Source: a virus
Taxonomy: Duplodnaviria > Heunggongvirae > Uroviricota > Caudoviricetes
Reading direction: 5' to 3' (one strand)
DNA length: 33,568 nt
Virus record (IMG/VR): IMGVR_UViG_2534681672_000004
Part shown: in pieces, positions 2,707 to 27,854 of the stretch
How positions within the stretch are numbered: the first letter of the stretch is position 1
Layout of the letters: every line of letters starts with the position of its first letter
Notes under the pieces: generated by a model
What the model saw: only the letters and a program-made list of their open reading frames with translations
Told to the model about the DNA's origin: nothing
Database searches by the model: none
Made by a program: the position numbers and the translations under genes

Positions 2707-5136
2707 TTAGTCATGCATCATGCTTGCGCGGGCTTTGGCGCGCTTCTCGCGCTCATACTTTTCTAATGCATCCTGCAAATCATTACCCAACCGATCTCCC
2801 GGCATACCATTGCCCGGCACGGTGATTTGATAGATTGGCCGACTCTGGTCGATGTAGGTTTTACCGGCGGGTGCCGTGACCGGCTGATAGCTGTTGTATG
2901 CGCTGATTGCCGGGCTGTAACCGTTCTGCGTCGCTGCATTGGCTTTCGCCGCTGTCTGGTCAAGTGAGCTGGATTCTTTGTTGATAATGCCGAGTTTTTC
3001 GAGCACCCAGTCAATCCCGCTTCGCAGCTTGTTAAAGGCGTTAAGCGGCATCAGCAGCGCATCGGCCAGCGTCTGACCGAACATAACCCCAACATCACGA
3101 CAACTGTTGAGCGTGTCCTGAGTCGCTTTCACCGGCGCTATCAGGTCTTTAAACCACTGCCAGACGCCGCGAAGTTTTTCGCCGAGACCGTCGAAAATGG
3201 GTGCCAGCGGGGCGAACATTTCCCCGACCGGCGCAAAGGCACTCATGAGCCCCTCGACCACACCGGCAAAGAATGCGCTGACAGGCTCCCAGTATTTACG
3301 GATAAGCAGCGCGCCAGCGACAACAGCCGCCGCTACCGCCACGACAGGCCACGTAATAGCACCAATAGCCGCAATGACCCCGCCACTGATTGTCGTAAAG
3401 ACCGCACCAAGCGCACCAGCCGCCGAAATGATGGCGTTAATGCCAGTAATTACCGGCCACGATACAAGGCCAATGGCACCAATCATCCCCACAATACCGA
3501 CAGCTGCCGCCGTAATGACACCCAGCGTGGTGGCAAGAGATTTGTTCTTTTGGATCCAGCTATCGAGCCTCAATACATACCCTGTCGTCGTTTGTACCAG
3601 CTTTCTTAATGATGACTCTTGCTGGTCAAACAGGTCGGTTCCTACCGCTTCATACGCAGACTGAAACTCTTTAAAATCGCCGCCGAGGTTATCCTGCATG
3701 ACCTTCACCAGCTCAGCGGTTTTGCCATCCGATGCTTTAAGGGAAGCGGTAAGCTGGTCTAATTTCCCGCTCGAGGCAGCGGTCATGAGTACCGCAGCCG
3801 ACGAGCTGGCCTCTTCACCGAAAATGGTTTTCATATATTCGGCACGCTGGCCGGTGCCGAGGTTGTTTTTATCAAAACTCCGCTGCATTTCTTTCAGGAT
3901 GGTAAATATTGGACGTGTGTTCCCCTTACCATCAGCCGTTTTGACGCCGAGCTCTTTAATGGCGTCATACGCTTTGCCCGTTGGAGCCTGCAGGCGACTT
4001 AATACGGCACGGCTCCCCGTACCCGCCATCGATCCCGTAATTTTGGCGTCATGCAGTGCGCCGACCATTGCGGCTGTTTCTTCGATGCTGACCCCGGCAT
4101 TTTTCGCCACCGGCGCGGCATAAGTCAGCGCATCACTCAGGCCGTCAAAGTCGGCGGCGGTTTTGTTCATCGTCATCGACAGAACATCACCGATATGGGC
4201 GACCTTATCGTTTGAAAGCTGGAAGGCAGAGCGCATCCCCATCAATAACCCGGCGTTCTCTTCCATCGTTCGACGGTTTGCGAGCGCCATATCGAGTGTT
4301 ACGGGGGTAGCGGCCTGAATAGCCGCAGCATCGCCGCCAGCCTTTGCAATAATAATCTGAGCACCGGCAGCATCATCAGCCGACGCGGCGGTGTTGTCAC
4401 CGAGCTGGCGCGCCTGTTTGCGGAGCGCCACCATATCAGCTGAGTCTTTACCGACACCGAGAACGGCCTGTAACTCAGAGTTTTTCTGAGCAAAATCATA
4501 ACCGGGCTTCATCAGTGCAACACCGGCAAGCGCTCCGGTCGTTGCCATGCCTATCCCGGCAGCGCCCATCGATGCCGCATTTCCAGCCAGTGCCTTTCCT
4601 GCCTGATAGCGTTTTTGTACTGCGCTGAGTTTTGCCTGTTGCGCGCTGACCCGCGCCAGTGCTTCATGCTGGCGGTTAAGTTGTGCGGTAGTTTCATTGA
4701 TAGAGTTTTTCAGGCGGCTTTCATCATTCGACAGATTGCGCGTATTAATCCCCGCTTTGCCGAGCTCGGTCTGTTGCCGCTTCACCGATTGGGTGAGGCT
4801 GTTATATTTTGCCTGTAACCCTTCAGCCGAACGCTTTGCTGATTCCAGCACTCTGGCCTGTGCCGCCGTTGGCCGTTCCGTGTTTTTAAACTGCACCGCC
4901 AGCTCGGCGGCTTCCTGTTTTGCCTTTTCCAGTGCCTGTCCGGTTACCGCCAGTTGTGCGCTGGTTTTGCGAAAACCGTCGATTTTCGATGCCTGACCAT
5001 TCAAATCACGCAGGGATTGCTGAGTCGTGCGGATATCGCCAGACAGCGATTTGCTCGCCGTCTGGAGCGCTTTAAAGGGTCGGGTCGCCTGGTCGACAGC
5101 TTTCAGCAGCACTTCGAGTTTGAGGTTATTACTCAT
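2707..5136 (-). CDS. T: Tail tape-measure protein gpT
   Basis: 809-aa ORF, Ala/Gln-rich coiled-coil N-terminal part followed by Gly/Ala-rich hydrophobic segments, located immediately after E/E' as in P2. Confidence 0.9.
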   Translation of the reverse strand: MSNNLKLEVLLKAVDQATRPFKALQTASKSLSGDIRTTQQSLRDLNGQASKIDGFRKTSAQLAVTGQALEKAKQEAAELAVQFKNTERPTAAQARVLESAKRSAEGLQAKYNSLTQSVKRQQTELGKAGINTRNLSNDESRLKNSINETTAQLNRQHEALARVSAQQAKLSAVQKRYQAGKALAGNAASMGAAGIGMATTGALAGVALMKPGYDFAQKNSELQAVLGVGKDSADMVALRKQARQLGDNTAASADDAAGAQIIIAKAGGDAAAIQAATPVTLDMALANRRTMEENAGLLMGMRSAFQLSNDKVAHIGDVLSMTMNKTAADFDGLSDALTYAAPVAKNAGVSIEETAAMVGALHDAKITGSMAGTGSRAVLSRLQAPTGKAYDAIKELGVKTADGKGNTRPIFTILKEMQRSFDKNNLGTGQRAEYMKTIFGEEASSSAAVLMTAASSGKLDQLTASLKASDGKTAELVKVMQDNLGGDFKEFQSAYEAVGTDLFDQQESSLRKLVQTTTGYVLRLDSWIQKNKSLATTLGVITAAAVGIVGMIGAIGLVSWPVITGINAIISAAGALGAVFTTISGGVIAAIGAITWPVVAVAAAVVAGALLIRKYWEPVSAFFAGVVEGLMSAFAPVGEMFAPLAPIFDGLGEKLRGVWQWFKDLIAPVKATQDTLNSCRDVGVMFGQTLADALLMPLNAFNKLRSGIDWVLEKLGIINKESSSLDQTAAKANAATQNGYSPAISAYNSYQPVTAPAGKTYIDQSRPIYQITVPGNGMPGDRLGNDLQDALEKYEREKRAKARASMMHD

Positions 5137-5562
5137 TCGTGTTTCCGCTTCGCTGTAGCGCTTTTTCGCGCCAGTTGACGAGTTCGGTCAGGCTCATGGG
5201 ATACAGGTCTGATGGCGACCAGTGGAAAATTACCGCTATGTCAGCCATCAGGTCATCGACCGAGAGTTTTTGCGGGAAGGTTACGCCGCCTAACTCGGTG
5301 ACAAAAAACCGACCACCTTACCGGCAAACGACAGCAGGTCGGGCAGCTCCAGTGCGGCGGCTTCCTGCTCGGTCAGCGACGGCATGGTCATGCGCGGCAG
5401 CACTTTAATCAGCGCATCGACGTCAGAGTTTGCGACAGATGCCAGGCTGACACCGCGAAGGGTTCCGGCACACGGTTTTAACAGGGTGACGTCGGTAATA
5501 ACCTGCTCACCGCGCTTAATGGGTTTAATCAGAGTGACGATATTTTCGTTAGTTTTATCCAT
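5129..5562 (-). CDS. Tail assembly chaperone gpE+E' produced by -1 programmed ribosomal frameshift
   Basis: Slippery heptamer T TTT TTG (minus strand, about 5302-5308) in frame ggT-TTT-TTG near the end of E. The -1 frame stays open about 58 codons to TAA at 5129-5131, overlapping the start of T, as in P2 E/E'. Confidence 0.7.
5290..5562 (-). CDS. E: Tail assembly chaperone gpE (zero-frame product)
   Basis: 90-aa ORF directly upstream of T; ends ...VGFLSPS just after a T-TTT-TTG slippery heptamer. Confidence 0.85.
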   Translation of the reverse strand: MDKTNENIVTLIKPIKRGEQVITDVTLLKPCAGTLRGVSLASVANSDVDALIKVLPRMTMPSLTEQEAAALELPDLLSFAGKVVGFLSPS

Positions 5563-5624
5563 GATATTTCTCGTTAAATTCTGGTTTCAGGATGCCCGGC
5601 CAGCCATGCTGACCGGGGCATAAA

Positions 5625-6143
5625 TTACAGGCCGATATTTTGTCGGTGCGCCTCGAGCATGTCGGTGCCGTTCACTTTTTCGATGAGGTTCACGGTGTCG
5701 ATTTCCACCAGTTCCGAGCCATTCATCGTCAGCTTGAAATAGGTACACGCGAGAGCGATTTTCGACTCGGTGTCTTCGCCCTGTTTGGCTTCACCGAGGT
5801 CGATTTCTTTCTGACGGCCACGGAGAACAACCTCAACCGGCACGGTCTCGCCGGTGTCATCACGCTGGTAAGACCCGGCAAAACGTAGCGGTACGGAGGC
5901 CGCGCCGGTGGCAGCGTATAACGACCAGATAGCGTCATCGGGGAAGCCGCCGAGAGAGATTTCAGCCGACAGCGCATCGTCATCGAGGCCGAGGTCGACC
6001 GGTGCCGAACCATTCATCCCGCCGCCGCGATAGTTCTCGAGCTTGCGGGTTAATTTCGGCAGCGTGACGGACTGCACGACGCCGAGATAACTCACCCCAT
6101 CGATAAACAGGTTCATGAGTTTGAGCTTGCGCGGTAATGCCAT
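5625..6143 (-). CDS. FII: Tail tube protein gpFII
   Basis: 172-aa ORF (same length as P2 FII) immediately downstream of FI. Confidence 0.9.
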   Translation of the reverse strand: MALPRKLKLMNLFIDGVSYLGVVQSVTLPKLTRKLENYRGGGMNGSAPVDLGLDDDALSAEISLGGFPDDAIWSLYAATGAASVPLRFAGSYQRDDTGETVPVEVVLRGRQKEIDLGEAKQGEDTESKIALACTYFKLTMNGSELVEIDTVNLIEKVNGTDMLEAHRQNIGL

Positions 6144-6155
6144 TTGTCAGGCTCC

Positions 6156-7343
6156 TTATTTGCTGTTGACGGACGAGATAAGATTCGCCAGATATTTATC
6201 AGTAATGCGCTGGCGTAAGGTCAGGTGTTCGAGTGGCGGCACCGGCGTATAGTCATAATCGATAAACAGTTTCCCGGCTTTCAGGGTTTCTTTACTGTTG
6301 GCCTCTTCGTCAAACCAGCACGTCGCATCGATGATGTAACCGCCGGTTTTCAGCTCGCGGAATTTCGCGTTGATGCCGTCGATAATGTCGCGAATCAACG
6401 TCGCGGTGATGGGCTTATCGTTCGCCCACATATGCCCCTCGGCTATTGTGTCGGGTATGACCTGTGCGGTGCGGGTGTAGTTCTCAAACTGAAACAGCGG
6501 GTCATCGGAGCAATTACGGTTACCCCAGAAGCGGAAACCATCGGCACGAATCAGCGTTGTAACACCGGCCTCATTCAGCAGGTCGGCATCAGTGCCAGAT
6601 TCCTGCAAATCCCAGAAGACCGACGCACTGATACCGGTGACGCCATTGATGCCGACGTTTGACAGGGTTTTATGCCAGCCTGTGTCATTGTCGATTTTTG
6701 CGCGCAGTCCCAACGCGATCGCTGTTGCATAACTGGTTGTGGTCGCGTTGGCCGTGGTATCCCACCCGAGGAAGTCAGGCCAGATAATCATGAGCTCACG
6801 GGCGCTGAAGTTTTCGCGGTAGGCGATAACGTCAGCAATGGTTTTACAGCCCCACGCGCTGACATAGGCGAAAGCGCGCAGCTTCTGAGCCACGGAGACA
6901 AGCGCGGTCGCCACCTCCTGAGTATCGAGCCCCGGCACACCGAGAATACGTGGCTTCACGCCGGTGACCGCTTTCGCCGTTAACAGCGCTTTCATCCCGG
7001 TATATTTGCCATTCTCATCCGTGGTGCCGATGATGTTAGAAATGGTTTGCGCCTGTGCCTCTTCGCCGTCGCCGGTACCCTCCGCGACACGCACAACAAC
7101 GACAACCGGTTTTGACTGGTTAGCGATGAGCTGTAAGGATTTTGCCAGGGTACCTTTAGTACCGGCTTTTGCGATGGCGCTTTGTGGGTTGGTAATCAGC
7201 ACCGGCTCATTGAGAGGGAAAGCCCCGGCGTCAGCATCACTGGCTGTGCAGACCATGCCAACGACCGCCGTTGATACCGTCGAGATTGTGCGGGTGCCGT
7301 CGTTAATTTCGACGACCTCGACACCGTGATGATAATCACTCAT
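6156..7343 (-). CDS. FI: Contractile tail sheath protein gpFI
   Basis: 395-aa ORF at the head of the FI-FII-E-T-U-D operon; size and order match P2 FI. Confidence 0.9.
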   Translation of the reverse strand: MSDYHHGVEVVEINDGTRTISTVSTAVVGMVCTASDADAGAFPLNEPVLITNPQSAIAKAGTKGTLAKSLQLIANQSKPVVVVVRVAEGTGDGEEAQAQTISNIIGTTDENGKYTGMKALLTAKAVTGVKPRILGVPGLDTQEVATALVSVAQKLRAFAYVSAWGCKTIADVIAYRENFSARELMIIWPDFLGWDTTANATTTSYATAIALGLRAKIDNDTGWHKTLSNVGINGVTGISASVFWDLQESGTDADLLNEAGVTTLIRADGFRFWGNRNCSDDPLFQFENYTRTAQVIPDTIAEGHMWANDKPITATLIRDIIDGINAKFRELKTGGYIIDATCWFDEEANSKETLKAGKLFIDYDYTPVPPLEHLTLRQRITDKYLANLISSVNSK

Positions 7344-7407
7344 CCGTTTAACTCCGTTAGTTGAGGTGAGTGATATTGTCTGGTTTACGCCTGTATGCGG
7401 CTATTTG

Positions 7408-7986
7408 TCAGGGTTCGCCGGTGGCTGACACAACGGGATTTGTCGCCGGAAATTTTTTATACAGCGTCGATATGCCCACATCAAAAATCAGTGCAACACG
7501 CTGTCGGGATTCTCCGGCCGCAATCAACCGGCCAGCCTGAGCCCATTCATCAGGCGTCAGCTTCGGCCTACGACCTCCGATCCTGCCTTGTGCCCGGGCT
7601 GCATCCAGCCCGGCGCGGGTTCGTTCGACGATTAACTCGCGTTCCATTTCTGCAAGAGCGCCCATGATGTGAAAGAAAAATCGCCCCATCGGGGTTGAGG
7701 TATCAATACTGTCGGTCAGGCTTCTGAAATTAACCCCTCGCTGGCGAAGCTCTTCAGTCATAGAGACAAGATGGCGCATGCTACGCCCGAGCCTGTCGAG
7801 CTTCCAGACAACGAGAGTATCACCGGCATTAAGTTGCCTGAGTGCGCGATTTAACCCTGGCCTGTTTGTCGATTTACCGCTGATTTTATCCTCGAAAATT
7901 AGCTCACATCCCGACCGTTCCAGCGCGTCACGCTGTAGCGCGGTATTTTGTTCATTTGTTGATACGCGCACATAGCCAACCTGCAT
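7408..7986 (-). CDS. Serine-recombinase DNA invertase (Hin/Gin/Cin/Pin family)
   Basis: N-terminus MQVGYVRVSTNEQNTALQRDAL... with catalytic-Ser motif; C-terminal HTH (GESRQRVALIFDVGISTLYKKF); GAGGGA RBS before ATG at 7986; sits beside an invertible tail-fibre segment. Confidence 0.9.
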   Translation of the reverse strand: MQVGYVRVSTNEQNTALQRDALERSGCELIFEDKISGKSTNRPGLNRALRQLNAGDTLVVWKLDRLGRSMRHLVSMTEELRQRGVNFRSLTDSIDTSTPMGRFFFHIMGALAEMERELIVERTRAGLDAARAQGRIGGRRPKLTPDEWAQAGRLIAAGESRQRVALIFDVGISTLYKKFPATNPVVSATGEP

Positions 7987-8040
7987 TTGTTTTCCCTCAT
8001 GCAAAAGCCCAAATGATGCCAGCTAGGGGGGAAAACTACA

Positions 8041-8066
8041 TTTTCTTAAACGTTGGTTTGGGAGAA
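8041..8066. other. hix/gix-like 26-bp recombination site (left boundary of invertible segment)
   Basis: TTTTCTTAAACG-TT-GGTTTGGGAGAA: two 12-bp half-sites around a 2-bp core; inverted copy of the site at 9888-9913. Confidence 0.8.
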
Positions 8067-8513
8067 GGTTCGGCATTACCCGTTGGTGTGCCTGTTCCGT
8101 GGCCTTCCGCCACTCCGCCAACAGGCTGGCTGAAATGCAACGGTGCGGCTTTTTCTGCTGAAGAATACCCGGAACTGGCAAAGGCTTACCCGACAAATAA
8201 ATTGCCTGATTTACGTGGTGAGTTCATTCGTGGCTGGGATGACGGAAGAGGAATAGATACTAACCGTAGCTTGCTTTCGTCACAGGGAGATGCCATTCGA
8301 AATATAATTGGTGCATTAGTGGATGTCAGGTTTAATACCTACCCTTCTGATTCTGGCGTTTTTACAACCAGCGTCATCGGAGATGCTTCATCTGATTCAA
8401 TTAAAGGTGGTTATGCAAAGCGAGTAACATTCGATGCTTCCAGAGTTGTTCCAACTGCAAACGAAAACCGACCTCGTAACATTGCCTTTAATTATATCGT
8501 GAGGGCTGCCTGA
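8055..8513 (+). CDS. Alternative tail-fibre C-terminal cassette (no own start; expressed only after inversion)
   Basis: Frame open from the hix core to a stop at 8513; encodes ...PVPWPSATPPTGWLKCNGAAFSAEEYPELAKAYP...NENRPRNIAFNYIVRAA, which I recall as close to Mu S/S' variable fibre ends. Confidence 0.75.
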   Translation, partial: GLGEGSALPVGVPVPWPSATPPTGWLKCNGAAFSAEEYPELAKAYPTNKLPDLRGEFIRGWDDGRGIDTNRSLLSSQGDAIRNIIGALVDVRFNTYPSDSGVFTTSVIGDASSDSIKGGYAKRVTFDASRVVPTANENRPRNIAFNYIVRAA

Positions 8514-9115
8514 TGAATAAAGCCGTATTAAATAACGAACTCATTGCCATAAAAGCGGGAGACATTACCATTTATAATTATGATGGTGAAACGCGGGAAT
8601 ATATTTCCACATCAACTGAATATCTTGCGGTTGGCGTCGGTATCCCGGCATGTTCTTGTTTAGATGCACCAGTTACACATAAAGCTGGTTATGCAATCTG
8701 CCGTTCTGCAGATTTTAACTCATGGGAATATGTGCCAGACCATCGCGGTGAAATCATCTATAGCACCGAAACAGGAGAATCGAAAGAAATCACAGCTCCG
8801 GGTGATTACCCTGAAAATACAACCACTATCGCCCCGTTAACGCCATATGATAAATGGGATGGTGAGAAATGGGTGACGGATACTGAGGCACAGCATAGTG
8901 CCGCAGTAGACGCGGCAGAAGCACAGCGCCAGTCACTGATTGATGCAGCAATGGCTTCCATTAGTCTGATTCAGCTGAAATTACAGGCCGGACGGAAGTT
9001 GACGCAGGCAGAAACAACCCGACTTAACGCCGTGCTGGATTACATTGACGCGGTGACGGCAACAGATACCAGCACCGCGCCGGATGTCATCTGGCCTGAA
9101 CTGCCGGAGGCGTAG
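8513..9115 (+). CDS. Tail-fibre assembly chaperone (partner of the alternative fibre C-terminus)
   Basis: 200-aa ORF starting at the stop of the alternative cassette; C-terminal LNAVLDYIDAVTATDTSTAPDVIWPELP motif typical of Tfa/gpG/U proteins. Confidence 0.85.
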   Translation: MNKAVLNNELIAIKAGDITIYNYDGETREYISTSTEYLAVGVGIPACSCLDAPVTHKAGYAICRSADFNSWEYVPDHRGEIIYSTETGESKEITAPGDYPENTTTIAPLTPYDKWDGEKWVTDTEAQHSAAVDAAEAQRQSLIDAAMASISLIQLKLQAGRKLTQAETTRLNAVLDYIDAVTATDTSTAPDVIWPELPEA

Positions 9116-9527
9116 GCCATTCAATATCTGGAGCACTGGAGGTATCGACCAGTTCCAGTGCGTCCAGATAATCCAGCCACAAATTATATTGCGCCAGTTC
9201 CTCACCTTTCAGGCGACCAATAGCCGCTTTACCAGGCCATTGTTTACTGTTCATATAATCGTTGGCCTGATTAATCAGTTGCTGCTTTTCCAGTTCGGCT
9301 GCAGCAATCTGTTCCTCATGTGTTGGTGGTGGAATTTCAGACCATGCAGGAAAACCATTTTCTCCAGCGATACGGATTTTTCCTTTCGGCGGTAATCCGG
9401 AAAACTCAATATACGCTTGCTCATCAACTTCAACAGCATCATCTGGCCATGAGTCAGCTTGAGTGTAATCCTCTTTCATCTCCAGCGGATAGAAAGAGTT
9501 TGTAGTCACGGAATATATGTAATTCAT
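9087..9527 (-). CDS. Tail-fibre assembly chaperone (partner of the currently expressed fibre C-terminus)
   Basis: 146-aa ORF directly downstream of H; C-terminal NLWLDYLDALELVDTSSAPDIEWPTPP motif typical of Tfa proteins; converges on and overlaps the other Tfa gene. Confidence 0.85.
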   Translation of the reverse strand: MNYIYSVTTNSFYPLEMKEDYTQADSWPDDAVEVDEQAYIEFSGLPPKGKIRIAGENGFPAWSEIPPPTHEEQIAAAELEKQQLINQANDYMNSKQWPGKAAIGRLKGEELAQYNLWLDYLDALELVDTSSAPDIEWPTPPAVQAR

Positions 9528-9548
9528 TTTTCACTCCATATAGCTAAA

Positions 9549-10508
9549 TTAACAGCCTAACGCTAAAAATGAAGCGCCGAGGCCAGGAGTACTGGCTCTG
9601 GATATAAATTTAACCGGGTCGGGACTAAAACCTGCACAGGCAATATAACCAACAGCCCCGCTATCTGGTGTGTAGTCTTGTGAGACCAAAACACGCAGAC
9701 ATCTGTTTGGAAATGCAATCGGGAAATGGGTTACTATATCCTGTGCAATGCCTGGTGCGCCGATTGAGCCCCACTGAAGAATAAAACCTGATGGTAATTT
9801 TTGATATCCAGTACCTGAAACAGAAAGCGTGAAGCTACCCATATCAGGTATCTGATTTGCCCCTGTCCCTACATTCCTTTTAGCCGCTTCTCCTAAACCA
9901 AGGTTTTTGAGAACCTCAGCAACCAATCCGGCGTCGGCCATTTCTTTTAGTGCGTTCGCAATCAGCGGGTATTGCTTATGCGGGTTAGCCTTTGCCTCAT
10001 GATCTTTCATGAGTTTGTCGGCGTAGCTCTTCACCTCGATGACTGCATCGTCGACATATTTACGGGTTGCCAGCACGACTGACGGGTCGATTTTTAAGGT
10101 GATCGCCGAAGTGCTCGAGACAACGAGAATCATGCGAATGGTCTGCGTTCGGCCGCTCCCCTCAGCCAGTAACGGTTTATAGGTTTCCGGGCAGTTGGCG
10201 ACAGCAATCAGGATACCTTCATCATCGTAAAGACCGATTTCGCGGATAAAGAAACCGCCCTCGTTTTCCGGGATGATCTGCTCGGCAATAATCTGACCGG
10301 TGTCGTTAGCATCTACTGCCAGTGAATTTAGCAGCTCGCGGCGACGCTCGTTAATGAGCTTTGTCTGAGCCGGGTCAGGTGTCGGCAGTGTGCCGTTTCC
10401 GTCCCCGACGGCCATTTGTGTAATATTCAGTTTAGTACCGAGTGCGGTCGCGTTTGCCAGTCGCGCCGCGCCCTGATGGGTCAGAATGGCAAAATATTTA
10501 GTCGTCAT
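9549..10508 (-). CDS. H: Tail fibre protein gpH (constant N-terminal part plus currently expressed variable C-terminus)
   Basis: N-terminus [22 protein letters not shown]...MAVGDGNG...[18 protein letters not shown]...AEGSG matches the conserved P2 H / Mu S N-terminal region; the hix site lies inside the ORF at 9888-9913. Confidence 0.85.
9888..9913. other. hix/gix-like 26-bp recombination site (right boundary, inside gene H)
   Basis: TTCTCCTAAACC-AA-GGTTTTTGAGAA; very close to the Salmonella hix site as I recall it (TTCTTGAAAACCAAGGTTTTTGATAA). Confidence 0.8.
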
Positions 10509-11116
10509 GCGCTTACTCGCAGGTTATCAATCAGATGAATGGCCGAAGCCGGACAAAACTCACCACCGACGACAATCTCCCCGGAGGCATAGGGATATAC
10601 GGTTAACAGGTCGCCGTCGTAGCAGCTTGCGCCCACATAAGCGCGCCCGGTGGTGCTCAGGCTGATAGCGAGCCCGGTCAGGTGTCGGCTTGCCGGTTTT
10701 GCCCCTTCAATAAGGCGCTCGAGCTCGAGATACATCTCATCGGTGATGCCGGTCTCGAGTACGCCAACCACAAGCCGGAAAGTTCCCGGCTCTTCGTTGA
10801 GCTCCCACCACTCTTTAACCTCAATCAGATAGCCCAGCGGCTCCACCACGCGCCGTAATGCGGCGATGGTGCCTTTGTGGGCATGAACATAAAATGCGGA
10901 GGCGATAACGCTGCGTTTTGTGGCCTCCGGCCATCTCTCATCCCACCGGTCAACCGAAAATGCCCACGCCAGATACGGCAGCAGCCGCACCGGGCAAGTG
11001 CGCCAGTTCCACAACGTGCGAAGCGGTACCGGCACACGCTCAATATCTGCGGCCGCGCGGGCGGCGGCGACCTCGAGCAGCGATGAGCCAACAGGCAACA
11101 GTCGCTTATTACTCAT
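10505..11116 (-). CDS. I: Baseplate protein gpI
   Basis: Start taken at internal ATG 11116 ([12 protein letters not shown]...), directly after the J stop; position between J and H as in P2. Confidence 0.8.
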
Positions 11117-12021: not shown

Positions 12022-12369
12022 TCAACTCACAGGAATAGTCAGTGACAGGGTTTTGCCGGTGTCCCGGGTCTCGCCGGTCAGCTCAACAATCATCTGACCG
12101 TTAAACTGACGTTCTACCGTCAGCGAGCTGATGCTGATGCGCGGCTCCCACTTCAGCAGCGCCATATAACAGGCGCACATAATTTGCAGTCTCAGCGCGT
12201 CGGTCTGCGGCATATCAATCAGGGAGAACAACAGCGAGCCATAATCGCGACGCATCACGCGAGAGCCGACCGGCGTTCGCAAAATATCGCCACAGCTCTG
12301 ACGGATGTGATCGGCGTCAGTGATGGCGCGCCCGGTCTCCCTGTTCATACCGATATAACGGGTCGTCAT
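12022..12369 (-). CDS. W: Baseplate protein gpW
   Basis: 115-aa ORF (P2 W size) between V and J. Confidence 0.85.
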   Translation of the reverse strand: MTTRYIGMNRETGRAITDADHIRQSCGDILRTPVGSRVMRRDYGSLLFSLIDMPQTDALRLQIMCACYMALLKWEPRISISSLTVERQFNGQMIVELTGETRDTGKTLSLTIPVS

Positions 12370-13007
12370 TTCGTGCCCTCCGTCCAGGCTCCACCTCTTT
12401 GCACACCGCCGTGACCGTGGCTGTCGACCTGAACGCCGTTGGATTTAAACGTACCGTCGGTGTGTTCGATGTTTCCGCGCATGGTGCCGCCTTGTTGTAC
12501 CTCAAGCGTCGCCGTCGTCAGTTTGTTGGTGCAGACCACTTCCGGTGTATCGAGGGTGATGCGGGTCTCGGCTTTCACCGTCACCAGCGGTACCGTCGCG
12601 GTGATGGAATCCGACGCCGTAACGTCTGCGGTTTTAATGCCGCTCACGGTCAGCGCGCCGGTCTCCGGCTCGTACTCGATAACAGCCCCATCAGGAAAGG
12701 TGATGTGAAAAGCATCAGCCGACGCCGACGGCGCGGGGTGGTCATCCGAAAAAATGCCGGGCAGCACAAAAGCGGTGTCGAGTTCACCACCCACGGCCAG
12801 CAGTAAAACCTGCTCGCCCACAGACGGAGCCCACCAGACACGTGAACGACCGGCGCGTGTGGTCAGCCACTGAAGCCAGTCGGTAACAATGCCGCCAGTC
12901 TGGACGCGACAGCGCCCGTCATCGAGGTCAACTTCGACGACGACGCCGGTACGTATCAGGTTGCGAAGGAGGCGTAAAGCGTCCTGAAGAGTTGCGCGAG
13001 TATTCAT
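12366..13007 (-). CDS. V: Baseplate spike/hub protein gpV
   Basis: Start at internal ATG 13007 (MNTRATLQDALRLLRNLIRTGVVVEVDLDDGRCRVQTGG...), which closely parallels the P2 gpV N-terminus as recalled. Confidence 0.85.
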   Translation of the reverse strand: MNTRATLQDALRLLRNLIRTGVVVEVDLDDGRCRVQTGGIVTDWLQWLTTRAGRSRVWWAPSVGEQVLLLAVGGELDTAFVLPGIFSDDHPAPSASADAFHITFPDGAVIEYEPETGALTVSGIKTADVTASDSITATVPLVTVKAETRITLDTPEVVCTNKLTTATLEVQQGGTMRGNIEHTDGTFKSNGVQVDSHGHGGVQRGGAWTEGTK

Positions 13008-13083
13008 ACAAGGAAGGATGCCGCCCGGTGCTCTGGACGGCAATTAATGCGGGTTTTACCAGATATGGCACAACATACAAAAA

Positions 13084-14427
13084 CTAGCTTGGGGTAACTG
13101 TAACCTGACGAGAAAAAACAACAGGCTCCTTCAATTGCTCACATATAATTTTAAAATTAATAACTCCAGAGCCAATCGTTAAGGGAATGATGACTATTTC
13201 CTCATACTCAACAGTTAAGCTCTGTAACACTTTTTTCGCACGCAACGTGATTTTATGGTCCTCTTTCATGACCCACTCATCTTGGTTAACTGTTCCTAAA
13301 TCAGCCATCCGTTTAATTATTGCTGGCACTTCGAAATGAGGTTTAGCCATTACCATCGATGTATCATCAAAAATACCCATCCTAAAATTTTCGAGTGACA
13401 TTATAGCACTGAGTCTTTTTTTATGCTTACTTATTGGGGACTCAGGGATTTTTAATTTCGGCTCTTTTATAAATAAGTCTTCATTAGAACCTTTAAGCAC
13501 TATTAGGAATTCAGGAAAATCAATCTCAACATAAACATTTGACGCAAAAGTCCTCCCATTATTTCTTAAAACGGGCTTCACTGTAATTGCATTGTTTTTG
13601 TAATTACAGTGCAATCTCATTTTTTTATTATATAAATCCACATCTTTATCAGTAGGCAGTGAAGAGTTATATGATTCAATCTCATCAATGGTGATAGTGT
13701 CCTTCAACTCAAGAGGTACCGCTTCCTTGCATAGTTGTGGAAGGTAATCCTGATAAGTCGACTCCACATCCACCGTCAAAGCTAAGTCATTATCAATCAT
13801 GCTCAGCTCTAATTGAGGTGCATCGCTATGTAATTGGCTTTCATATTCGCGGACTTTTTCCCTTAATTTTCTATTTTCATTAGATAGCTCAGCCAACTCG
13901 GCGGTAATCTCTTTAGATGCGACCTGGTCACCGCGCACCCATCCTATTCGTGGATTTCGTCGCATTACTTTTGGTAAGGCGATAGCAACCTTCGTCGCTA
14001 ACTCATCAATTGTCTCCCAAAAATCACACATTTTGTTAGCTTTAGCTTTTTCAATAAAAGCATTTAGTTGCTTTTCTTTTTGAGGGTCACTTTCTCGTTC
14101 ATGTGGTTTTGTTAAAACGTCCCTCCCTCTAATAAAAGCCAACACCGGTATATTTAATGATTTAGCATAGTTATATTCCATTTCAGTATAGCTAATACCA
14201 TCTTTAGAAACGGACCCATACTTATGCCCAATGATAATCACATAATAATCACTAGCATCAATAGTCTCCTTTATTATATCCCACTGCTCAGAGTCATCAG
14301 CGCTAAACATCTCCATGCCAACTGGAAAGTGGTATAAACTAAGGACCGTTTCTATGATTTTTTTGCGAGCATCAATTAAATCGACGTATGTAGAGCTCAC
14401 AAATACTTGATATTTTTTATTTTCCAT
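13084..14427 (-). CDS. AT-rich cargo protein with N-terminal DUF4062-like (TIR/SLOG-like Rossmann) motif, central coiled coil and uncharacterised C-terminal domain; candidate anti-phage/accessory gene
   Basis: Start at ATG 14427 (MENKKYQVFVSSTYVDLIDARKK...) with GAGGA RBS. The VF-SST..DL...R and YYVIIIGHKYG motifs match my recollection of DUF4062. Inserted between S and V, which are adjacent in P2; strongly AT-rich by eye. Confidence 0.65.
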   Translation of the reverse strand: MENKKYQVFVSSTYVDLIDARKKIIETVLSLYHFPVGMEMFSADDSEQWDIIKETIDASDYYVIIIGHKYGSVSKDGISYTEMEYNYAKSLNIPVLAFIRGRDVLTKPHERESDPQKEKQLNAFIEKAKANKMCDFWETIDELATKVAIALPKVMRRNPRIGWVRGDQVASKEITAELAELSNENRKLREKVREYESQLHSDAPQLELSMIDNDLALTVDVESTYQDYLPQLCKEAVPLELKDTITIDEIESYNSSLPTDKDVDLYNKKMRLHCNYKNNAITVKPVLRNNGRTFASNVYVEIDFPEFLIVLKGSNEDLFIKEPKLKIPESPISKHKKRLSAIMSLENFRMGIFDDTSMVMAKPHFEVPAIIKRMADLGTVNQDEWVMKEDHKITLRAKKVLQSLTVEYEEIVIIPLTIGSGVINFKIICEQLKEPVVFSRQVTVTPS

Positions 14428-14464
14428 AACATCCTCACTTGTATAGAAAATAAAATACATAAAA

Positions 14465-14932
14465 TCAATCAATAGATCTAGCCGCCTCAGCTAAAGAAAC
14501 CATAATTATGTCATGAATCATATTTTTTGATTCATGATCAAACCCGATAAGCATTCGGGCGTCATACTGTACCGGCGCACTGTTTCGCCCAGGCTTATCT
14601 TTGAGACCGTACTGATGCACATTCGCCATCCGTTGTACCTTGCCGGTAAATTCCACGACCGCCGAGTCATTCCCCGCTGTGGCTTTCATAAAGCGACTGG
14701 TGCGGAGCTTAGCGAACATTTCCCGCTTAACCCGGCCTGTTTTGGCTTTTACCGGCTGGCGTTTTCGGGCGGCGTAAGGTGTCCCGTCCGGGGCTTTCTG
14801 CATTTTAATCCGGCGCTGTTGACGGGCTCGCAGGGTCTTAGCGATATCTGCGGCCATTCTGCGACGGGCGGCAGGAGACAGCGCTGCTATCAGCCCCGTG
14901 AGCGTATCGTCAAAGGGTTTAAAGTCATTCAT
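14465..14932 (-). CDS. S: Tail completion protein gpS
   Basis: 155-aa ORF following R; size and order match P2 S. Confidence 0.85.
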   Translation of the reverse strand: MNDFKPFDDTLTGLIAALSPAARRRMAADIAKTLRARQQRRIKMQKAPDGTPYAARKRQPVKAKTGRVKREMFAKLRTSRFMKATAGNDSAVVEFTGKVQRMANVHQYGLKDKPGRNSAPVQYDARMLIGFDHESKNMIHDIIMVSLAEAARSID

Positions 14933-15392
14933 GCAATCGACTCACGAGCTCACCGTTAACATACAGCTCAACTGGCCGGGTAACGGGCTCCGGCGGCTGC
15001 GGCTCTTCAGCCTGTTCAACGTGAAGCTTATCCCCCTGTTCTTTAACGATAGTGCGCTCGGTCAGCATCAGACTGATACTGATATCGACGCTGTCGTTGT
15101 CGTTGATATCGGCAAAATAGGTGAATCCCTTTTTACGCCCTTCATCGGTCGTCATAATGTCAGCCTGATGTATGCGTAGCCACGCCTGAATCGGGACGAG
15201 TAACAGCTCGATATCATCCGTGAAATCGGTCACCACCACATTCAGCGTGTACCGGTTCTCAAACGACAGCGACGTCGCCAGCGTCGAGGCCAGATTCCCG
15301 TTGTCGATAAAGACACGCATCATATCGGGGTTTCGTGCCAGCACCGGCACGGCGTCAGTTAAGGCTTTTCGCAGACTCTTCGGCTTGTACAT
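14925..15392 (-). CDS. R: Tail completion protein gpR
   Basis: 155-aa ORF (P2 R size) downstream of the lysis cassette. Confidence 0.85.
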   Translation of the reverse strand: MYKPKSLRKALTDAVPVLARNPDMMRVFIDNGNLASTLATSLSFENRYTLNVVVTDFTDDIELLLVPIQAWLRIHQADIMTTDEGRKKGFTYFADINDNDSVDISISLMLTERTIVKEQGDKLHVEQAEEPQPPEPVTRPVELYVNGELVSRLHE

Positions 15393-23296: not shown

Positions 23297-23983
23297 TTAT
23301 TGCTTATCTTGTGGTGGTGGAACCTCTTTTTCTAAATTATCTACATACTCTCTAATATTGAATGCTTTGTTTTTCCTTATTTCGGTAGTGTTAACCTTAC
23401 TAACACCATCACGAATGTTTTTATTTATGGTGTCTATTAATTTTTGTCTTTCTTGTTCTGTTTTTATTATTTCACTTAAGAATGACTTTGCGTTTCTTGA
23501 AATGTCCGTCTGTCTATTAATGAATAGTATCGCATACACTGAAAAAACCAAGCAAGTAGTCGTTAGTGCGGAATTAAAAAATACCCCATAATAAACATTA
23601 ACTTTTGTTATTGACGCTGATAACGTTAGTGATATCAAAAAAAACAAAATCAGGGTAAAAATATATGCAATGGTTACTTTGTTTTTAGTGGTGTCAAGAA
23701 TGTATGAAGTTCTTTGATCATCAAAGTAATCCTTTATCCTTGATGGAGTGTTTGCGGGGAGTTCTAACTCCTTTATTTTATCATCAGCATCAATTAGTCG
23801 CTTAAACATGAGGCTAATGATTACGGCGCTAAAGACAGAGATCCCCTTTGAAATTATAGGATCGAAATCAATTAAAAATGAGTATTTTGAATAAACAAAA
23901 ACAATAACAAAACCACATATAAGCCCAATTACAATTGAGCTTGCTATGTTTTTTGCATATGTTTGTAACGTATTGTTTATCAT
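23297..23983 (-). CDS. Four-TM membrane protein, second gene of an AT-rich two-gene cargo operon (candidate effector)
   Basis: Four hydrophobic helices followed by a charged C-terminal tail; ATG overlaps the upstream gene's TGA (ATGA coupling); strongly AT-rich. Confidence 0.7.
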   Translation of the reverse strand: MINNTLQTYAKNIASSIVIGLICGFVIVFVYSKYSFLIDFDPIISKGISVFSAVIISLMFKRLIDADDKIKELELPANTPSRIKDYFDDQRTSYILDTTKNKVTIAYIFTLILFFLISLTLSASITKVNVYYGVFFNSALTTTCLVFSVYAILFINRQTDISRNAKSFLSEIIKTEQERQKLIDTINKNIRDGVSKVNTTEIRKNKAFNIREYVDNLEKEVPPPQDKQ

Positions 23984-24963
23984 GGGTTAATTACTCCGGT
24001 GTCTAGTAAGCGCAATAACCATGAAATCATTTCTTCAGCAACGTTGTCAGCAATTAGCATTCCATTGCTGTATTCAATATTAACTGAATCCTTTAGTTGA
24101 ATCTCATCATTCCTGAGTATTCCTGCACCTTTTAACTCAATTGTTAAGCTTTCATCTCTATTATCAACCAAGCCTTGTGTAATTTTACGCAACATGTCTT
24201 GCTCAGACTCGCTTGCTTTATATTTATACCCAATGGAAATATCAATTGATAGAGATTCCCTGTCAGGTGAACCATCATTTAAAATGGTATTTTTCTTCAT
24301 TTCATTAATTCGATGTTCACCTACGAGCGTTTTTAATAGCTCACTAGCTGTATCATCAATATTATTTCCATAGTAGGTTAAAGGCAGCTTTAAGCTAACA
24401 TTTTTTACTATGTTACGTTTTAAAAAATCCGTATTTAGAGACAGGTTGTTTGCCTGTAAAACGATGAAGTTATCATCAGTAATAGATAGGTTGTCTTGTA
24501 GTATGAAATTTATATAATTTTCAATATCTTTTATTCTAATAGATCTGCTTTGCAGAATTATGAAGTGGTTCTTAATCACACCAATGTATGCAATGCTTTC
24601 TAAATACTCTCTAGCATTCCCACTTGATAAATTTAATGTCTCGTATGTTAAAGCTGTTTTAGCATAATCGCTAACAGAGAAAACAGGAATGCTACTACCC
24701 GGTTCAATATAGACAATTTCCGCAAAAAACATTCCATGAATTTCTTTGCTATTTGAAAGAACCATGTGGGCGTGAGCAGCGACATTACCATTATTATCTG
24801 GAACATCAGGGAAGAATAATCTATCAGCAACATTTGGAACCTTGATTTTCACAAGGTTTGCCAACCTATCTTGCAGGTTTGATGTTAAAAGAGCATCCTT
24901 TTTAGGAAGCATTATTGCATGGCGATAATGCAGCATTTTACTCTTATAATCTTGCGTTGCCAT
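23980..24963 (-). CDS. Hypothetical cytoplasmic protein, first gene of the AT-rich two-gene cargo operon (candidate sensor/enzyme)
   Basis: 327-aa ORF with GAGGGA RBS before ATG 24963; no motif I can recognise; between portal gene Q and cos. Confidence 0.7.
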   Translation of the reverse strand: MATQDYKSKMLHYRHAIMLPKKDALLTSNLQDRLANLVKIKVPNVADRLFFPDVPDNNGNVAAHAHMVLSNSKEIHGMFFAEIVYIEPGSSIPVFSVSDYAKTALTYETLNLSSGNAREYLESIAYIGVIKNHFIILQSRSIRIKDIENYINFILQDNLSITDDNFIVLQANNLSLNTDFLKRNIVKNVSLKLPLTYYGNNIDDTASELLKTLVGEHRINEMKKNTILNDGSPDRESLSIDISIGYKYKASESEQDMLRKITQGLVDNRDESLTIELKGAGILRNDEIQLKDSVNIEYSNGMLIADNVAEEMISWLLRLLDTGVINP

Positions 24964-25557: not shown

Positions 25558-25706
25558 TAACGTATTGGCAAAAGATGGGAAGAGAAAAAGTGAATCGGGT
25601 AGGTGTTGTATGTACATGATATGGATGTAAATTAATCACCTGTGAGTTTTGATGTTTCTGCCAGCACCGCAACACGATTAAGGATTTCCCTAGGCTTTGC
25701 CTGAAG

Positions 25707-27854
25707 CTATGGCGCTGCGGAGAAAATTTCACCTTTGGACGTTCCACGCAACCATTTACCGTTAATACAACTTTTGCCACCTGCTATCAGGTGCAGGGCT
25801 TCTCCCCGGCTGATGGTAATGCCGGTTGTCAGACGGATCTCGTCGATAGTTTTTTCTATCGGAGCACTTTGCTCATCTGTTCCGTGGATAAATTTCGGCC
25901 TCTTAGGTGGCTTTGGTTTCCTGATTCGGTTCGTCAGCTCTCGCCTTTCACGTCGACTCAGGGGTTTTGATAAATCGAGTTCCGGTGGATCGCTTTCGCT
26001 TCCCGTACAGTTATTGACAGAACTCCAAGGGACGGCGAAGCCGTCCTTAACGTCAACGGCCAAATCAACGGCACGCTTCGGAACAATTTTCCATTGCGTG
26101 AGCCGGGTTAAAATCGGAGTGCCAACACCAACGGTGGAGTCGTACACACCACGAATGCAGACAGTTTCCTCACCATACTGGTTAAACTCGGTGCGCGGTT
26201 CATAAAGCGTACGCACCTGCAAATCATCGCGACGGACAAACGGACCGCCCTGCGCATTAACATAGCCAGCCCAATCACCGGCATCGGCGGCATCATGGAC
26301 AGCCGCAAACTCAACACTTAGACCGTGCGCGGTCTCGGTATCTGCAAGGCGACGCAATTCACGATAAACAGTCACTGGTGCACCACCGATAAACTGAAAC
26401 TGACGAATATGCCAGCGCGCCGCCCATGCTGAAACGGCGGGGGCTGTCTCTTTCAACAGTTCACCGTTTTCGTCATCGGTTTCGTCATCAAGAGCGTAAC
26501 CGTCGATATTTTTCGAGATGTATTTCGCGACGTAGCCGGTTGCGCTGCCTTTCTCCGGATCAATGGCTTCTGCGTGGAAACGTGCTTTTTTGGCTTTATC
26601 GCTTTTGAGTTCGTGAAAATCTTCTTGCCATGCGTAGTCCCGAATAATGCCACGAACGGTATCGACGTCCTCCGGGAGCATAAACATCAGCATATGCCAG
26701 TGAGGGCACCCGTCATGGTGAGGCTCTGCAACGCGGATCCCGAAAATACGAATGTCTTCACGGTGGAGTTTTGCGCGAATGCGTGCCCACAGGCCAGTGA
26801 GATAACATTGCGTATCGGATGGATTGGATCCATTCCATTTGGTGTTACGGTAGCCTGCCTTTGTCGTGGCGTGATATTTAGACGGTGCGGTCAGGGTGTA
26901 AAACTCACCAACATAACCGAGCTCATTGCAGATATTTTCAAACCCACGAATGCGGGTCATAAGCTCACAGCGTCGAATCGCAGAGTTAGCGACTGAACCA
27001 TCGTATTTTTCAATCAGGCTGATACGGTTGCCGTCTTCGTCTTCAAGCTCCAGACCTTTGAGAAATTCGCGCGTCCGGCGCTTCTGTTCACGCCAGTCTG
27101 TCACGCAGTTTTTACTCGCGTAGACATGTTTTTTCTTACTGACATTTCCGATTGCGATTTGCAGGTGTTCGCGCCACGCAGCCGCAATGCGACGCAGACG
27201 GCCACGCCACCATTTTTCCGAAAACATACGGGCAATTGCTGGAGCGACTTTATCCTGATCCCAATATTTATCCCGCGACCGTTCCCACTCTGGTGGCATT
27301 ATCCTGAATTGCTGAGTGATGAAACCAGCATGCATATACCAGGCATTTAATGTCTCCAGTTCACACATGTCAGAATCGTCAATGTTGACTAACTCTGCAC
27401 GGATAAAATCGGCGATATCAGCAGCCAGCAGGTCGATGTCGGCGCGTGCCATATCCGGGAGTCGGTTGTATCTGGCGACTATGTTGACCATGCGAGACGC
27501 CAGATATTGCATAAGCTGAGTATCGAAATGACAACCGAAAACAGCGGCTGATACGTTGCTGTTAATACCGGTACACTCGTATTTTTTTGCGACCAGTTCA
27601 AAACGCGGCAATGCCTTTTTGCAGAAGCTTATTAAAAAAGCATTGGCTCGTTGACTGCCCTGATTTTGCTCCAGCACCGCAGCAGTGCGATAAACGTCAA
27701 AACGTACACACTCGGGCTGGAGGGAAAGCACCTTTCTAGCATGCAGCAAAGCCGCGAGCATACGGTCGCGGCGATACTGTTGGTCGTAGGTAAGATATGG
27801 ACTGGCTATTGCCGACCGTGGAGCATTCCACGGAAACGCGAATTGAACAGCCAA
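25707..27854 (-). CDS. A: Replication initiation protein gpA (rolling-circle initiator)
   Basis: 715-aa ORF; region ...IRVAEPHHDGCPHWHMLMFM... and ...YVAKYISKNIDGY... with the active-site Tyr context characteristic of P2/186 A. Confidence 0.9.
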   Translation of the reverse strand: MAVQFAFPWNAPRSAIASPYLTYDQQYRRDRMLAALLHARKVLSLQPECVRFDVYRTAAVLEQNQGSQRANAFLISFCKKALPRFELVAKKYECTGINSNVSAAVFGCHFDTQLMQYLASRMVNIVARYNRLPDMARADIDLLAADIADFIRAELVNIDDSDMCELETLNAWYMHAGFITQQFRIMPPEWERSRDKYWDQDKVAPAIARMFSEKWWRGRLRRIAAAWREHLQIAIGNVSKKKHVYASKNCVTDWREQKRRTREFLKGLELEDEDGNRISLIEKYDGSVANSAIRRCELMTRIRGFENICNELGYVGEFYTLTAPSKYHATTKAGYRNTKWNGSNPSDTQCYLTGLWARIRAKLHREDIRIFGIRVAEPHHDGCPHWHMLMFMLPEDVDTVRGIIRDYAWQEDFHELKSDKAKKARFHAEAIDPEKGSATGYVAKYISKNIDGYALDDETDDENGELLKETAPAVSAWAARWHIRQFQFIGGAPVTVYRELRRLADTETAHGLSVEFAAVHDAADAGDWAGYVNAQGGPFVRRDDLQVRTLYEPRTEFNQYGEETVCIRGVYDSTVGVGTPILTRLTQWKIVPKRAVDLAVDVKDGFAVPWSSVNNCTGSESDPPELDLSKPLSRRERRELTNRIRKPKPPKRPKFIHGTDEQSAPIEKTIDEIRLTTGITISRGEALHLIAGGKSCINGKWLRGTSKGEIFSAAP

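Follow-up and report, generated by a model that had tools for sequence, protein, structure and literature searches.

Proteins with a DUF4062 domain, also called NIR, were described in 2026 preprints as TIR-like NAD+ hydrolase (NADase) effectors of conflict systems (10.64898/2026.05.01.722283, 10.64898/2026.06.25.731849, 10.64898/2026.09.04.749371), and the abortive-infection systems reported there are Swarozyc, Evangelion, Avs2, Vulcan, and Vesta. Biochemical proof for the domain comes from KpSwz, TEP1, and PsAvs2 only (10.64898/2026.05.01.722283, 10.64898/2026.09.04.749371), while NADase activity, a requirement for the glutamate, NAD+ depletion, and abortive infection have been reported for KpSwz (10.64898/2026.05.01.722283) and for PsAvs2, Vulcan, and Vesta (10.64898/2026.09.04.749371), and anti-phage defence has been demonstrated for Eva01/Eva03 (10.64898/2026.06.25.731849). 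KpSwz of Klebsiella pneumoniae (10wc/11cq/11cv), the type member of Swarozyc, carries DUF4062 as a TIR-like NADase and exists as auto-inhibited dimers, intertwined through their stalks, from which tetramers and hexamers are built; activation follows when its C-terminal auxiliary (AUX) domain, an HTH (helix-turn-helix)/winged-helix module of ~115 residues, binds the phage portal, its activity depends on E97, and the tested Swarozyc members share "similar C-terminal auxiliary domains" (10.64898/2026.05.01.722283). Here we analyse a 447-amino-acid (aa) DUF4062 protein encoded by a P2-like prophage, IMG/VR virus record IMGVR_UViG_2534681672_000004 (33,568 nucleotides (nt); the window in what follows), in which its gene, the cargo gene, lies between the tail gene S and the baseplate gene V. 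Altogether, our analysis supports a model whereby this gene is probably, by analogy with the systems above, a DUF4062/NIR NADase that the prophage carries as a one-gene defence acting by abortive infection, because it combines homology to KpSwz, intact motifs, accessory status, a foreign composition, homologues with defence-gene neighbours, and a sensor-like mode of evolution.

The cargo protein matches the DUF4062 profile PF13271 over its full length (residues 7–88 against profile positions 1–82 of 82; 99 bits, the cut-off being 24.7; E=1.8e-28), which makes its N-terminus a bona fide DUF4062, as a sequence-only reading of the window had proposed. A phmmer search of the PDB sequences found the KpSwz chains 10wc/11cq/11cv (E=3.3e-46, residues 3–209), BLASTP against wild-type KpSwz (P0277, 325 aa) gave 40% identity over residues 3–212 (E=9e-53), and hhalign aligned the cargo family to the KpSwz family with a probability of 100% (E=1e-60). 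In the deposited KpSwz E97A chain, the segment SFTEKAF aligns to SYTEMEY of the cargo protein with the mutant alanine opposite E84, which identifies E84 as the predicted catalytic residue; wild-type KpSwz has a glutamate at the matching position. E82 had also been considered as the counterpart of E97 and is ruled out by the same alignment. F9, Q48, W49, T81, E82, and E84 are invariant across 78 homologues, and the motifs of the cargo protein agree with the aromatic F, Q/W/E, acidic-SYT, and "E-Y" motifs defined for Evangelion. The AlphaFold2 model (mean predicted local distance difference test score 84) contains an alpha/beta domain at residues 1–157 and a long helix at residues 172–201 that aligns with the KpSwz stalk, in agreement with the coiled coil proposed earlier from the heptad-like sequence following DUF4062. 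The N-terminus had also been described as a TIR/SLOG-like conflict domain. The three preprints on DUF4062 as a TIR-like NADase effector uphold the conflict-system part of that description; neither TIR nor SLOG families are among the Pfam matches at E<=1. The TIR-like character that we ascribe to the cargo N-terminus by analogy rests on the published KpSwz structure; Foldseek matches to the full model are dominated by the beta-sandwich described below, and the library searched, dated 8 April 2026, is older than KpSwz.

What follows the stalk had been set down as an uncharacterised C-terminal domain, and indeed no Pfam family covers residues ~202–447; structure prediction confidently models these ~245 residues as a macroglobulin/CARDB-like beta-sandwich. 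As judged by sequence and profile comparison, this domain is unrelated to the portal-binding winged-helix AUX of KpSwz: hhalign of its profile against the KpSwz family returned a probability of 0.27% (E=0.22), and BLASTP of the cargo protein against KpSwz found nothing past residue 212. An exhaustive search of 1.84 billion cluster representatives (50% identity) with the C-terminal profile recovered 1109 proteins, 142 of them at E<=1e-30, where a word-indexed search had given 6 matches; nearly all are 440–460 aa long with the domain at ~202–447. Among the matches of atypical length, 9/10 still begin with DUF4062, on which ground we rejected a sensor that is freely swapped onto other effectors. 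This near-exclusive fusion indicates that the NADase has a dedicated partner in the C-terminal domain, and that the architecture represents a large, distinct branch of DUF4062 proteins. One protein, P0175 (646 aa), is the only strong match in which Pfam recognises no domain over the N-terminal ~400 residues; either the sensor domain is joined to another effector there, or gene calling has fused two genes.

The two halves of the protein have evolved very differently among prophages that carry it in the same place. The arrangement of S, a DUF4062 gene, and V on the same strand recurs with a 96%-identical allele in Salmonella Newport and with alleles at 57–59% identity from a second E. coli, from K. 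pneumoniae, and from one further locus. Across these alleles the NADase domain and stalk are 82–85% identical and the C-terminal domain is 34–40% identical, with the flanking R, S, V, W, and J proteins at 61–95%; for the second E. coli prophage the values are 88–95% for the flanks and 36% for the C-terminal domain. Where an arms race acts on a domain that senses or sets specificity, one would expect such a combination of a conserved effector with a C-terminal domain that diverges quickly or is swapped, and the pattern is reminiscent of the "co-evolved DUF4062-AUX unit" described for Evangelion (10.64898/2026.06.25.731849). The Salmonella Newport allele lies in a P2-like prophage on the "plasmid" p20723-1 (NZ_CP051374.1, L091), a linear, non-mobilizable record of 194 kb that could represent a contig of the chromosome, or a replicon bearing a prophage, rather than a conventional plasmid.

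The cargo protein has 1235 full-length homologues, and its architecture occurs in Proteobacteria, Firmicutes, Bacteroidota, Verrucomicrobia, and other taxa. Outside the lineage above, S or V was found near the homologue in none of 80 cross-species loci (0/80), so that only the enterobacterial P2-like lineage, and not the family as a whole, is tied to the S–V location. The recurrent neighbours of these homologues are type I restriction-modification (R-M) subunits, ResIII, Eco57I, SWI2/SNF2, and caspase-domain genes, resolvases, and integrases (pooled Pfam/PADLOC counts for 140 open reading frames (ORFs) from 20 of the 80 loci, with subunits not assigned per locus), which is the usual setting of defence genes. 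At four loci from distant bacteria (L014, L026, L013, and L007, ~4700–10600 in each) large ORFs flank the full-length homologue, in a layout that by ORF size is suggestive of a type I R-M operon with methylase and specificity genes upstream and a ~1000-aa, R-subunit-sized ORF downstream. Within E. coli, 15/5426 complete genomes carry the cargo gene, in copies that are 99.6–100% identical and come from unrelated sources. The exact protein is present on 571 contigs. Among 50,697 phage records, the sole tblastn match was to the N-terminus, at 27% identity, and came from an Acinetobacter phage; sequenced P2-like phage isolates thus lack the gene.

In the window the gene order on the minus strand is R, S, cargo, and V (ORF calls and Pfam), and a single AT-rich gene of 447 codons between S and V, on their strand and at the position first reported for it, is borne out. 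Its GC content is 0.37 and its GC content at third codon positions (GC3) 0.35, against GC contents of 0.60 for V, 0.56 for S, and 0.53 for R; R, S, V, W, and J together span 0.53–0.60, with GC3 of 0.60–0.70. The window contains only one other AT-rich island, a gene pair at the classical gpA–Q hotspot. The prophage is of the E. coli 186/P2-like type and is inserted between rplS and yfiB according to the RefSeq annotation of the FORC 064 copy, which is 100% identical over 12366–15392 of the window, the part compared; at least one RefSeq coding sequence (CDS) transferred uncleanly. The cargo frame is open over 13084..14472 from a TTG and ends with a TAG at 13084–13086. The internal ATG at 14427 follows a GAGGA Shine–Dalgarno sequence (14436–14432) at a spacing of 4 nt, the TTG at 14472 has no Shine–Dalgarno sequence upstream, and RefSeq annotates 13084–14427 in identical copies as "DUF4062 domain-containing protein"; PHROG 9489 (function unknown) matches the protein over its full length. 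The 15-codon extension from the TTG had been considered as a parallel of the KpSwz "16-C" construct and was dropped, the numbering offset between the two proteins being 13.

S and V had been taken to be adjacent in P2, which is incorrect: in NC_001895, S is followed by a putative terminator, Orf30 (786 nt, nonessential, on the opposite strand), an Ogr-activator site, and V. Nor does the junction qualify as an unrecognised hotspot, since the orf30 region was named in 2010 at the latest, with the TO and Z regions, as one of three sites of foreign genes in P2-like phages (PMC3091744). Defence hotspots within P2 late genes have since been mentioned with the orf30 slot undetailed (10.64898/2026.02.27.708500), and later hotspot papers focus on gpA–Q and Z/fun. 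In keeping with cargo of the orf30 region, the cargo gene lies between S and V, is missing in close relatives, and differs in GC content (0.37 versus ~0.56). Out of 1878 E. coli records that matched, we took 60 at intervals along the ranking and could join S and V in 52, of which 33 have an empty junction and 19 carry one of ~8 cargoes (told apart by size or annotation); because cargo longer than ~2 kb was not joinable by this sampling, the occupancy is a lower bound. The cargoes are hypothetical proteins, some of them Orf30-sized, a 361-aa protein, a PCRF-domain protein, a pentapeptide-repeat protein, and the DUF4062 gene. The junction is therefore variable across related prophages, and the absence of the cargo gene from most of them indicates that it is accessory rather than a conserved P2 virion or morphogenesis component. 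The Orf30, 361-aa, PCRF-domain, and pentapeptide-repeat cargoes are themselves candidate accessory or defence genes; P2 Orf30 and the 361-aa protein have no Pfam or PADLOC match.

Comparison with a cargo-less prophage (H34) suggests how the gene arrived. Homology to H34 stops within S near 14545 and returns near 13073, ~10 nt past the cargo stop codon, where the conserved region upstream of V begins, so that the exchanged block comprises the end of S, the intergenic region, and the cargo gene. The S C-terminus reads MLIGFDHESKNMIHDIIMVSLAEAARSID in the window and PLIGFNDEDRQAVEEIIIAKLSV in H34; the window version has diverged and is 6 residues longer but keeps the LIGF...II..L pattern. Other cargo types (H35) also bring their own S C-terminus, and cargo exchange thus appears to recombine inside S. 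That the block carries its own S C-terminus implies that a different P2-like phage was its source and that it entered through recombination inside S and upstream of V, and not by insertion of a naked gene. The region upstream of V is shared by the window, H34, and three other DUF4062-bearing prophages, and at the corresponding place the P2 annotation has the Ogr-activated late promoter pV.

In our model, the cargo protein would rest in the lysogen as an auto-inhibited oligomer held together via its stalk, by analogy with KpSwz, Eva01, Vulcan, and Avs2-NIR. A superinfecting phage would make a ligand that is bound by the beta-sandwich C-terminal domain, ligand binding would rearrange the stalks and NADase domains, and NAD+ would then be depleted through E84. 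Sensing would probably be unlike the portal sensing of KpSwz, and the prophage's own proteins presumably do not trigger the cargo protein.

Expression is the least secure part of this model, and two candidate promoters were considered. A weak TTGATT-N17-TATACA match in the 3' end of S, proposed as promoter-like in the sequence-only reading, is present, but we reject it as the best candidate because it fails a promoter scan and its implied start at ~14433 falls inside the GAGGA Shine–Dalgarno sequence. A second candidate, TAGATC/TATTTT, lies ~15–20 nt upstream of the Shine–Dalgarno sequence, and its TAGA(T/C) and TA...T positions are kept in four S–V loci whose cargo proteins are only 57–59% identical, whether or not they overlap the end of S. 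A weak terminator-like hairpin in the 3' end of S is a possible counterpart of the P2 O-operon terminator.

Several observations weigh against a defence function in the lysogen. A consensus scan found no convincing sigma-70 promoter, the TAGATC/TATTTT candidate included. The cargo gene follows S by 37 nt on the strand of the late genes, so that it may chiefly be expressed late, and its expression in the lysogen is presumptive. The beta-sandwich is a generic fold that gives no clue to a ligand. PADLOC v2 (2023) has no model for the cargo protein, although this release predates the 2026 discoveries, and NCBIfam gives no meaningful match. Finally, the gene for the gpA homologue has an internal stop in the window and in the identical FORC 064 copy, so this prophage may be defective.

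Three alternatives to the defence model were weighed. The cargo protein might instead serve the prophage's own lytic cycle, as a late NADase that alters host metabolism, excludes competitors or satellites such as P4 during P2 development, or blunts NAD+-dependent host immunity. Expression, which could fall in the lysogen, in late development, or in both, gives this alternative its main support. All five S–V alleles examined lie on the late-gene strand right after S, with a gap of 37–64 nt and no strong terminator or promoter, and the lineage has been kept in the slot while diverging to 57% identity, thereby behaving like a resident of the late-gene module. Most P2-like prophages, however, have no gene in the slot, the full-length family also occurs outside phages beside R-M and other defence genes, every characterised bacterial DUF4062 protein acts in host defence, and the hypervariable C-terminal domain fits recognition of foreign targets; we consequently consider a lytic-cycle role, although conceivable from strand and position, unlikely. 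It is also quite improbable that the cargo protein is a plain Swarozyc orthologue with a larger C-terminal domain, which would sense an incoming portal and build an active NADase complex on it. Its NADase domain and stalk do show clear homology to those of KpSwz, and portals are recurrent defence triggers, but a sensing domain unrelated to the KpSwz AUX makes portal sensing unlikely, short of convergence. That the gene merely hitch-hikes in this prophage, neutral or decaying and under selection for no function, as its rarity in E. coli (15/5426 genomes) and the gpA stop might suggest, is hardly credible given an intact and conserved ORF with invariant catalytic motifs, 99.6–100% identical copies in 15 genomes from unrelated sources, the exact protein on 571 contigs, and intact alleles in the same slot in three genera.

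Beyond a defence function as such, we tentatively entertain a more specific joint proposal, which we hold to be possible rather than likely: that the beta-sandwich branch, with >1,100 representatives at 50% identity, has a phage ligand or recognition mode of its own, and that in P2-like phages it is a resident of the late module whose sensor alleles are exchanged via the 3' end of S. The ligand or mode may differ from the triggers described so far, namely portal, terminase, lambdap79, and replication or recombination intermediates, and the branch might be tied to late transcription and also act while the prophage itself develops, with satellites or co-infecting phages as conceivable targets.

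Table 1 Features of the cargo locus in the window and other cargoes of the S–V slot.
Feature	Position	Strand	Basis or remark
V, baseplate spike, first gene of V late operon	12366..13007	minus	Pfam Phage_base_V, Phage_spike, Apex; RefSeq coordinates
Conserved V-operon upstream region	13008..13073	minus	Shared with H34 and three DUF4062-bearing prophages
AT-rich exchanged block (last ~27 codons of S, intergenic region, cargo gene)	13074..14545	minus	GC 0.36; homology break against H34; composition
Cargo CDS, 447 aa	13084..14427	minus	Predicted NADase, helical stalk, beta-sandwich; WP_001366609.1, PHROG 9489
C-terminal domain, residues 202–447, putative sensor/specificity domain	13087..13824	minus	Modelled beta-sandwich with helical insertions
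Stalk helix/coiled coil, residues 172–201, ELAELSNENRKLREKVREYESQL	13825..13914	minus	AlphaFold2 helix; aligns with KpSwz stalk
N-terminal alpha/beta NADase domain (predicted), residues 1–157	13957..14427	minus	PF13271, KpSwz homology, AlphaFold2 secondary structure
Pfam DUF4062 core, residues 7–88	14164–14409	minus	PF13271
Predicted catalytic glutamate E84 codon	14176..14178	minus	Motif S79-Y80-T81-E82-M83-E84-Y85; KpSwz alignment
TTGATT-N17-TATACA motif	14440..14468	minus	Present; fails promoter scan (no T at -10 position 6)
Candidate cargo promoter: TAGATC 14480–14475, 17-nt spacer, TATTTT 14457–14452	14452..14480	minus	Inferred from cross-locus conservation
AT-rich final 27 codons of S	14465..14545	minus	Part of exchanged block
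Terminator-like hairpin in S 3' end, 8 pairs (3 G-C)	14477..14495	minus	Weak; 1 site against 2.0 expected by chance, not significant
S, tail completion gene	14465..14932	minus	Pfam Phage_tail_S, E=6.6e-34
R	14925..15392	minus	Pfam P2_Phage_GpR
Other S–V cargo: P2 Orf30, 261 aa	L001 2440–3225		
Other S–V cargo: 361-aa protein	L003 2258–3343		
Other S–V cargo: PCRF-domain and pentapeptide-repeat proteins			Hits H48 and H82

Other parts of the prophage also deserve mention. The gpA homologue, a replication endonuclease (25632–27854, minus strand), has its internal stop ~25 codons before the annotated end, so that the ORF ends at 25707, and in FORC 064 RefSeq gives gpA pseudogene status; replication of the prophage may be defective, or the only effect may be a slightly shorter protein. 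The second AT-rich island (23297–24963, minus strand, GC 0.31–0.39) occupies the gpA–portal (old/tin) hotspot and holds two overlapping genes for proteins of 327 and 228 aa that have no Pfam or PADLOC match; it is a candidate for an uncharacterised two-gene defence cassette. At the Z/fun position (~7408–8867; L090 15043–16502), a recombinase-family (DNA invertase) gene adjoins a gp53-like fragment and two opposed tail-fibre assembly genes, which is probably an invertible host-range switch. Finally, positions 1–723 on the plus strand encode a 240-aa hypothetical protein at the prophage edge, beside an ogr-like regulator; it has no Pfam or PADLOC match and may be further accessory cargo near the attachment site.

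A single-gene DUF4062 NADase with an auxiliary domain (2026), the slot itself (since the 2000s), the RefSeq domain annotation, and PHROG 9489 are already known. As far as the available texts show, the C-terminal domain of this subfamily and its trigger, the stable residence between S and V, and the contrast between a conserved effector and a hypervariable C-terminus are undescribed; the E. coli proteins that others have tested include "EcDUF4062" and "Eva03", and if Eva03 is the cargo protein, then that protein is already known. It was not until 2026 that an immune effector role was recognised for DUF4062/NIR NADases, each characterised system having a different sensor, and the locus described here points to a further and abundant pairing of NADase, stalk, and beta-sandwich. 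The slot alleles, with near-identical enzyme halves and sensor halves only 34–40% identical, constitute a natural experiment in which domain swaps could map specificity. Moreover, the long-known and neglected orf30 slot carries defence-type cargo alongside the old/tin and Z/fun hotspots, making its other cargoes candidates for guilt-by-association screening.

How, then, does the cargo protein compare with the described systems? It resembles Swarozyc in being a single gene with an N-terminal DUF4062, a glutamate in the same motif (E97 in KpSwz, E84 here) followed by a stalk, carriage on a mobile element, and 40% identity over ~210 residues. It differs in having a ~245-aa predicted beta-sandwich where KpSwz has a ~115-aa HTH/winged-helix portal binder, in length (447 versus 325 aa), and in residing in a P2 tail-gene slot, whereas KpSwz lies in an integrative island beside AAA, peptidase S8, and Fic genes; judging by length and identity, every Swarozyc protein tested seems to belong to the 325-aa type. 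In the island, at L088 3224–8978, the KpSwz gene itself directly follows an AAA ATPase and peptidase-S8 pair and a Fic gene, with AlpA, DUF5906, and an integrase downstream, and this island looks like a P4-like or satellite-type defence hotspot. With Evangelion (10.64898/2026.06.25.731849) the cargo protein shares a single-gene DUF4062 core with all motifs present, a diversified, co-evolving AUX, and mobile-element carriage; it has no conserved partner gene, its flanks being phage tail genes. Eva01, in contrast, is a much smaller staphylococcal plasmid protein (AUX truncation L177) with replication-associated triggers; one of the E. coli lineages, Eva03 (which acts against Dhillonvirus) or Eva04, may correspond to the cargo subfamily. 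Avs2-NIR, Vulcan, and Vesta (10.64898/2026.09.04.749371) have in common with it the NADase effector domain and, as we infer, the logic of abortive infection, but Avs2 combines a STAND nucleoside triphosphatase (NTPase) with a TPR sensor, Vulcan has HEAT repeats, and Vesta consists of two genes including an alkaline phosphatase; the cargo protein lacks these, with no Pfam match to NTPase, TPR, or HEAT families. Finally, the cargo gene resembles the accessory ("moron") genes of P2 at old/tin, Z/fun, and orf30, of which old, tin, and fun are phage-exclusion genes, in being AT-rich and present only in some P2-like phages, and it occupies the exact position of orf30. Orf30 is an unrelated protein of 261 aa encoded on the opposite strand and has no known domain, while the cargo gene lies on the late-gene strand and belongs to an experimentally supported defence family.

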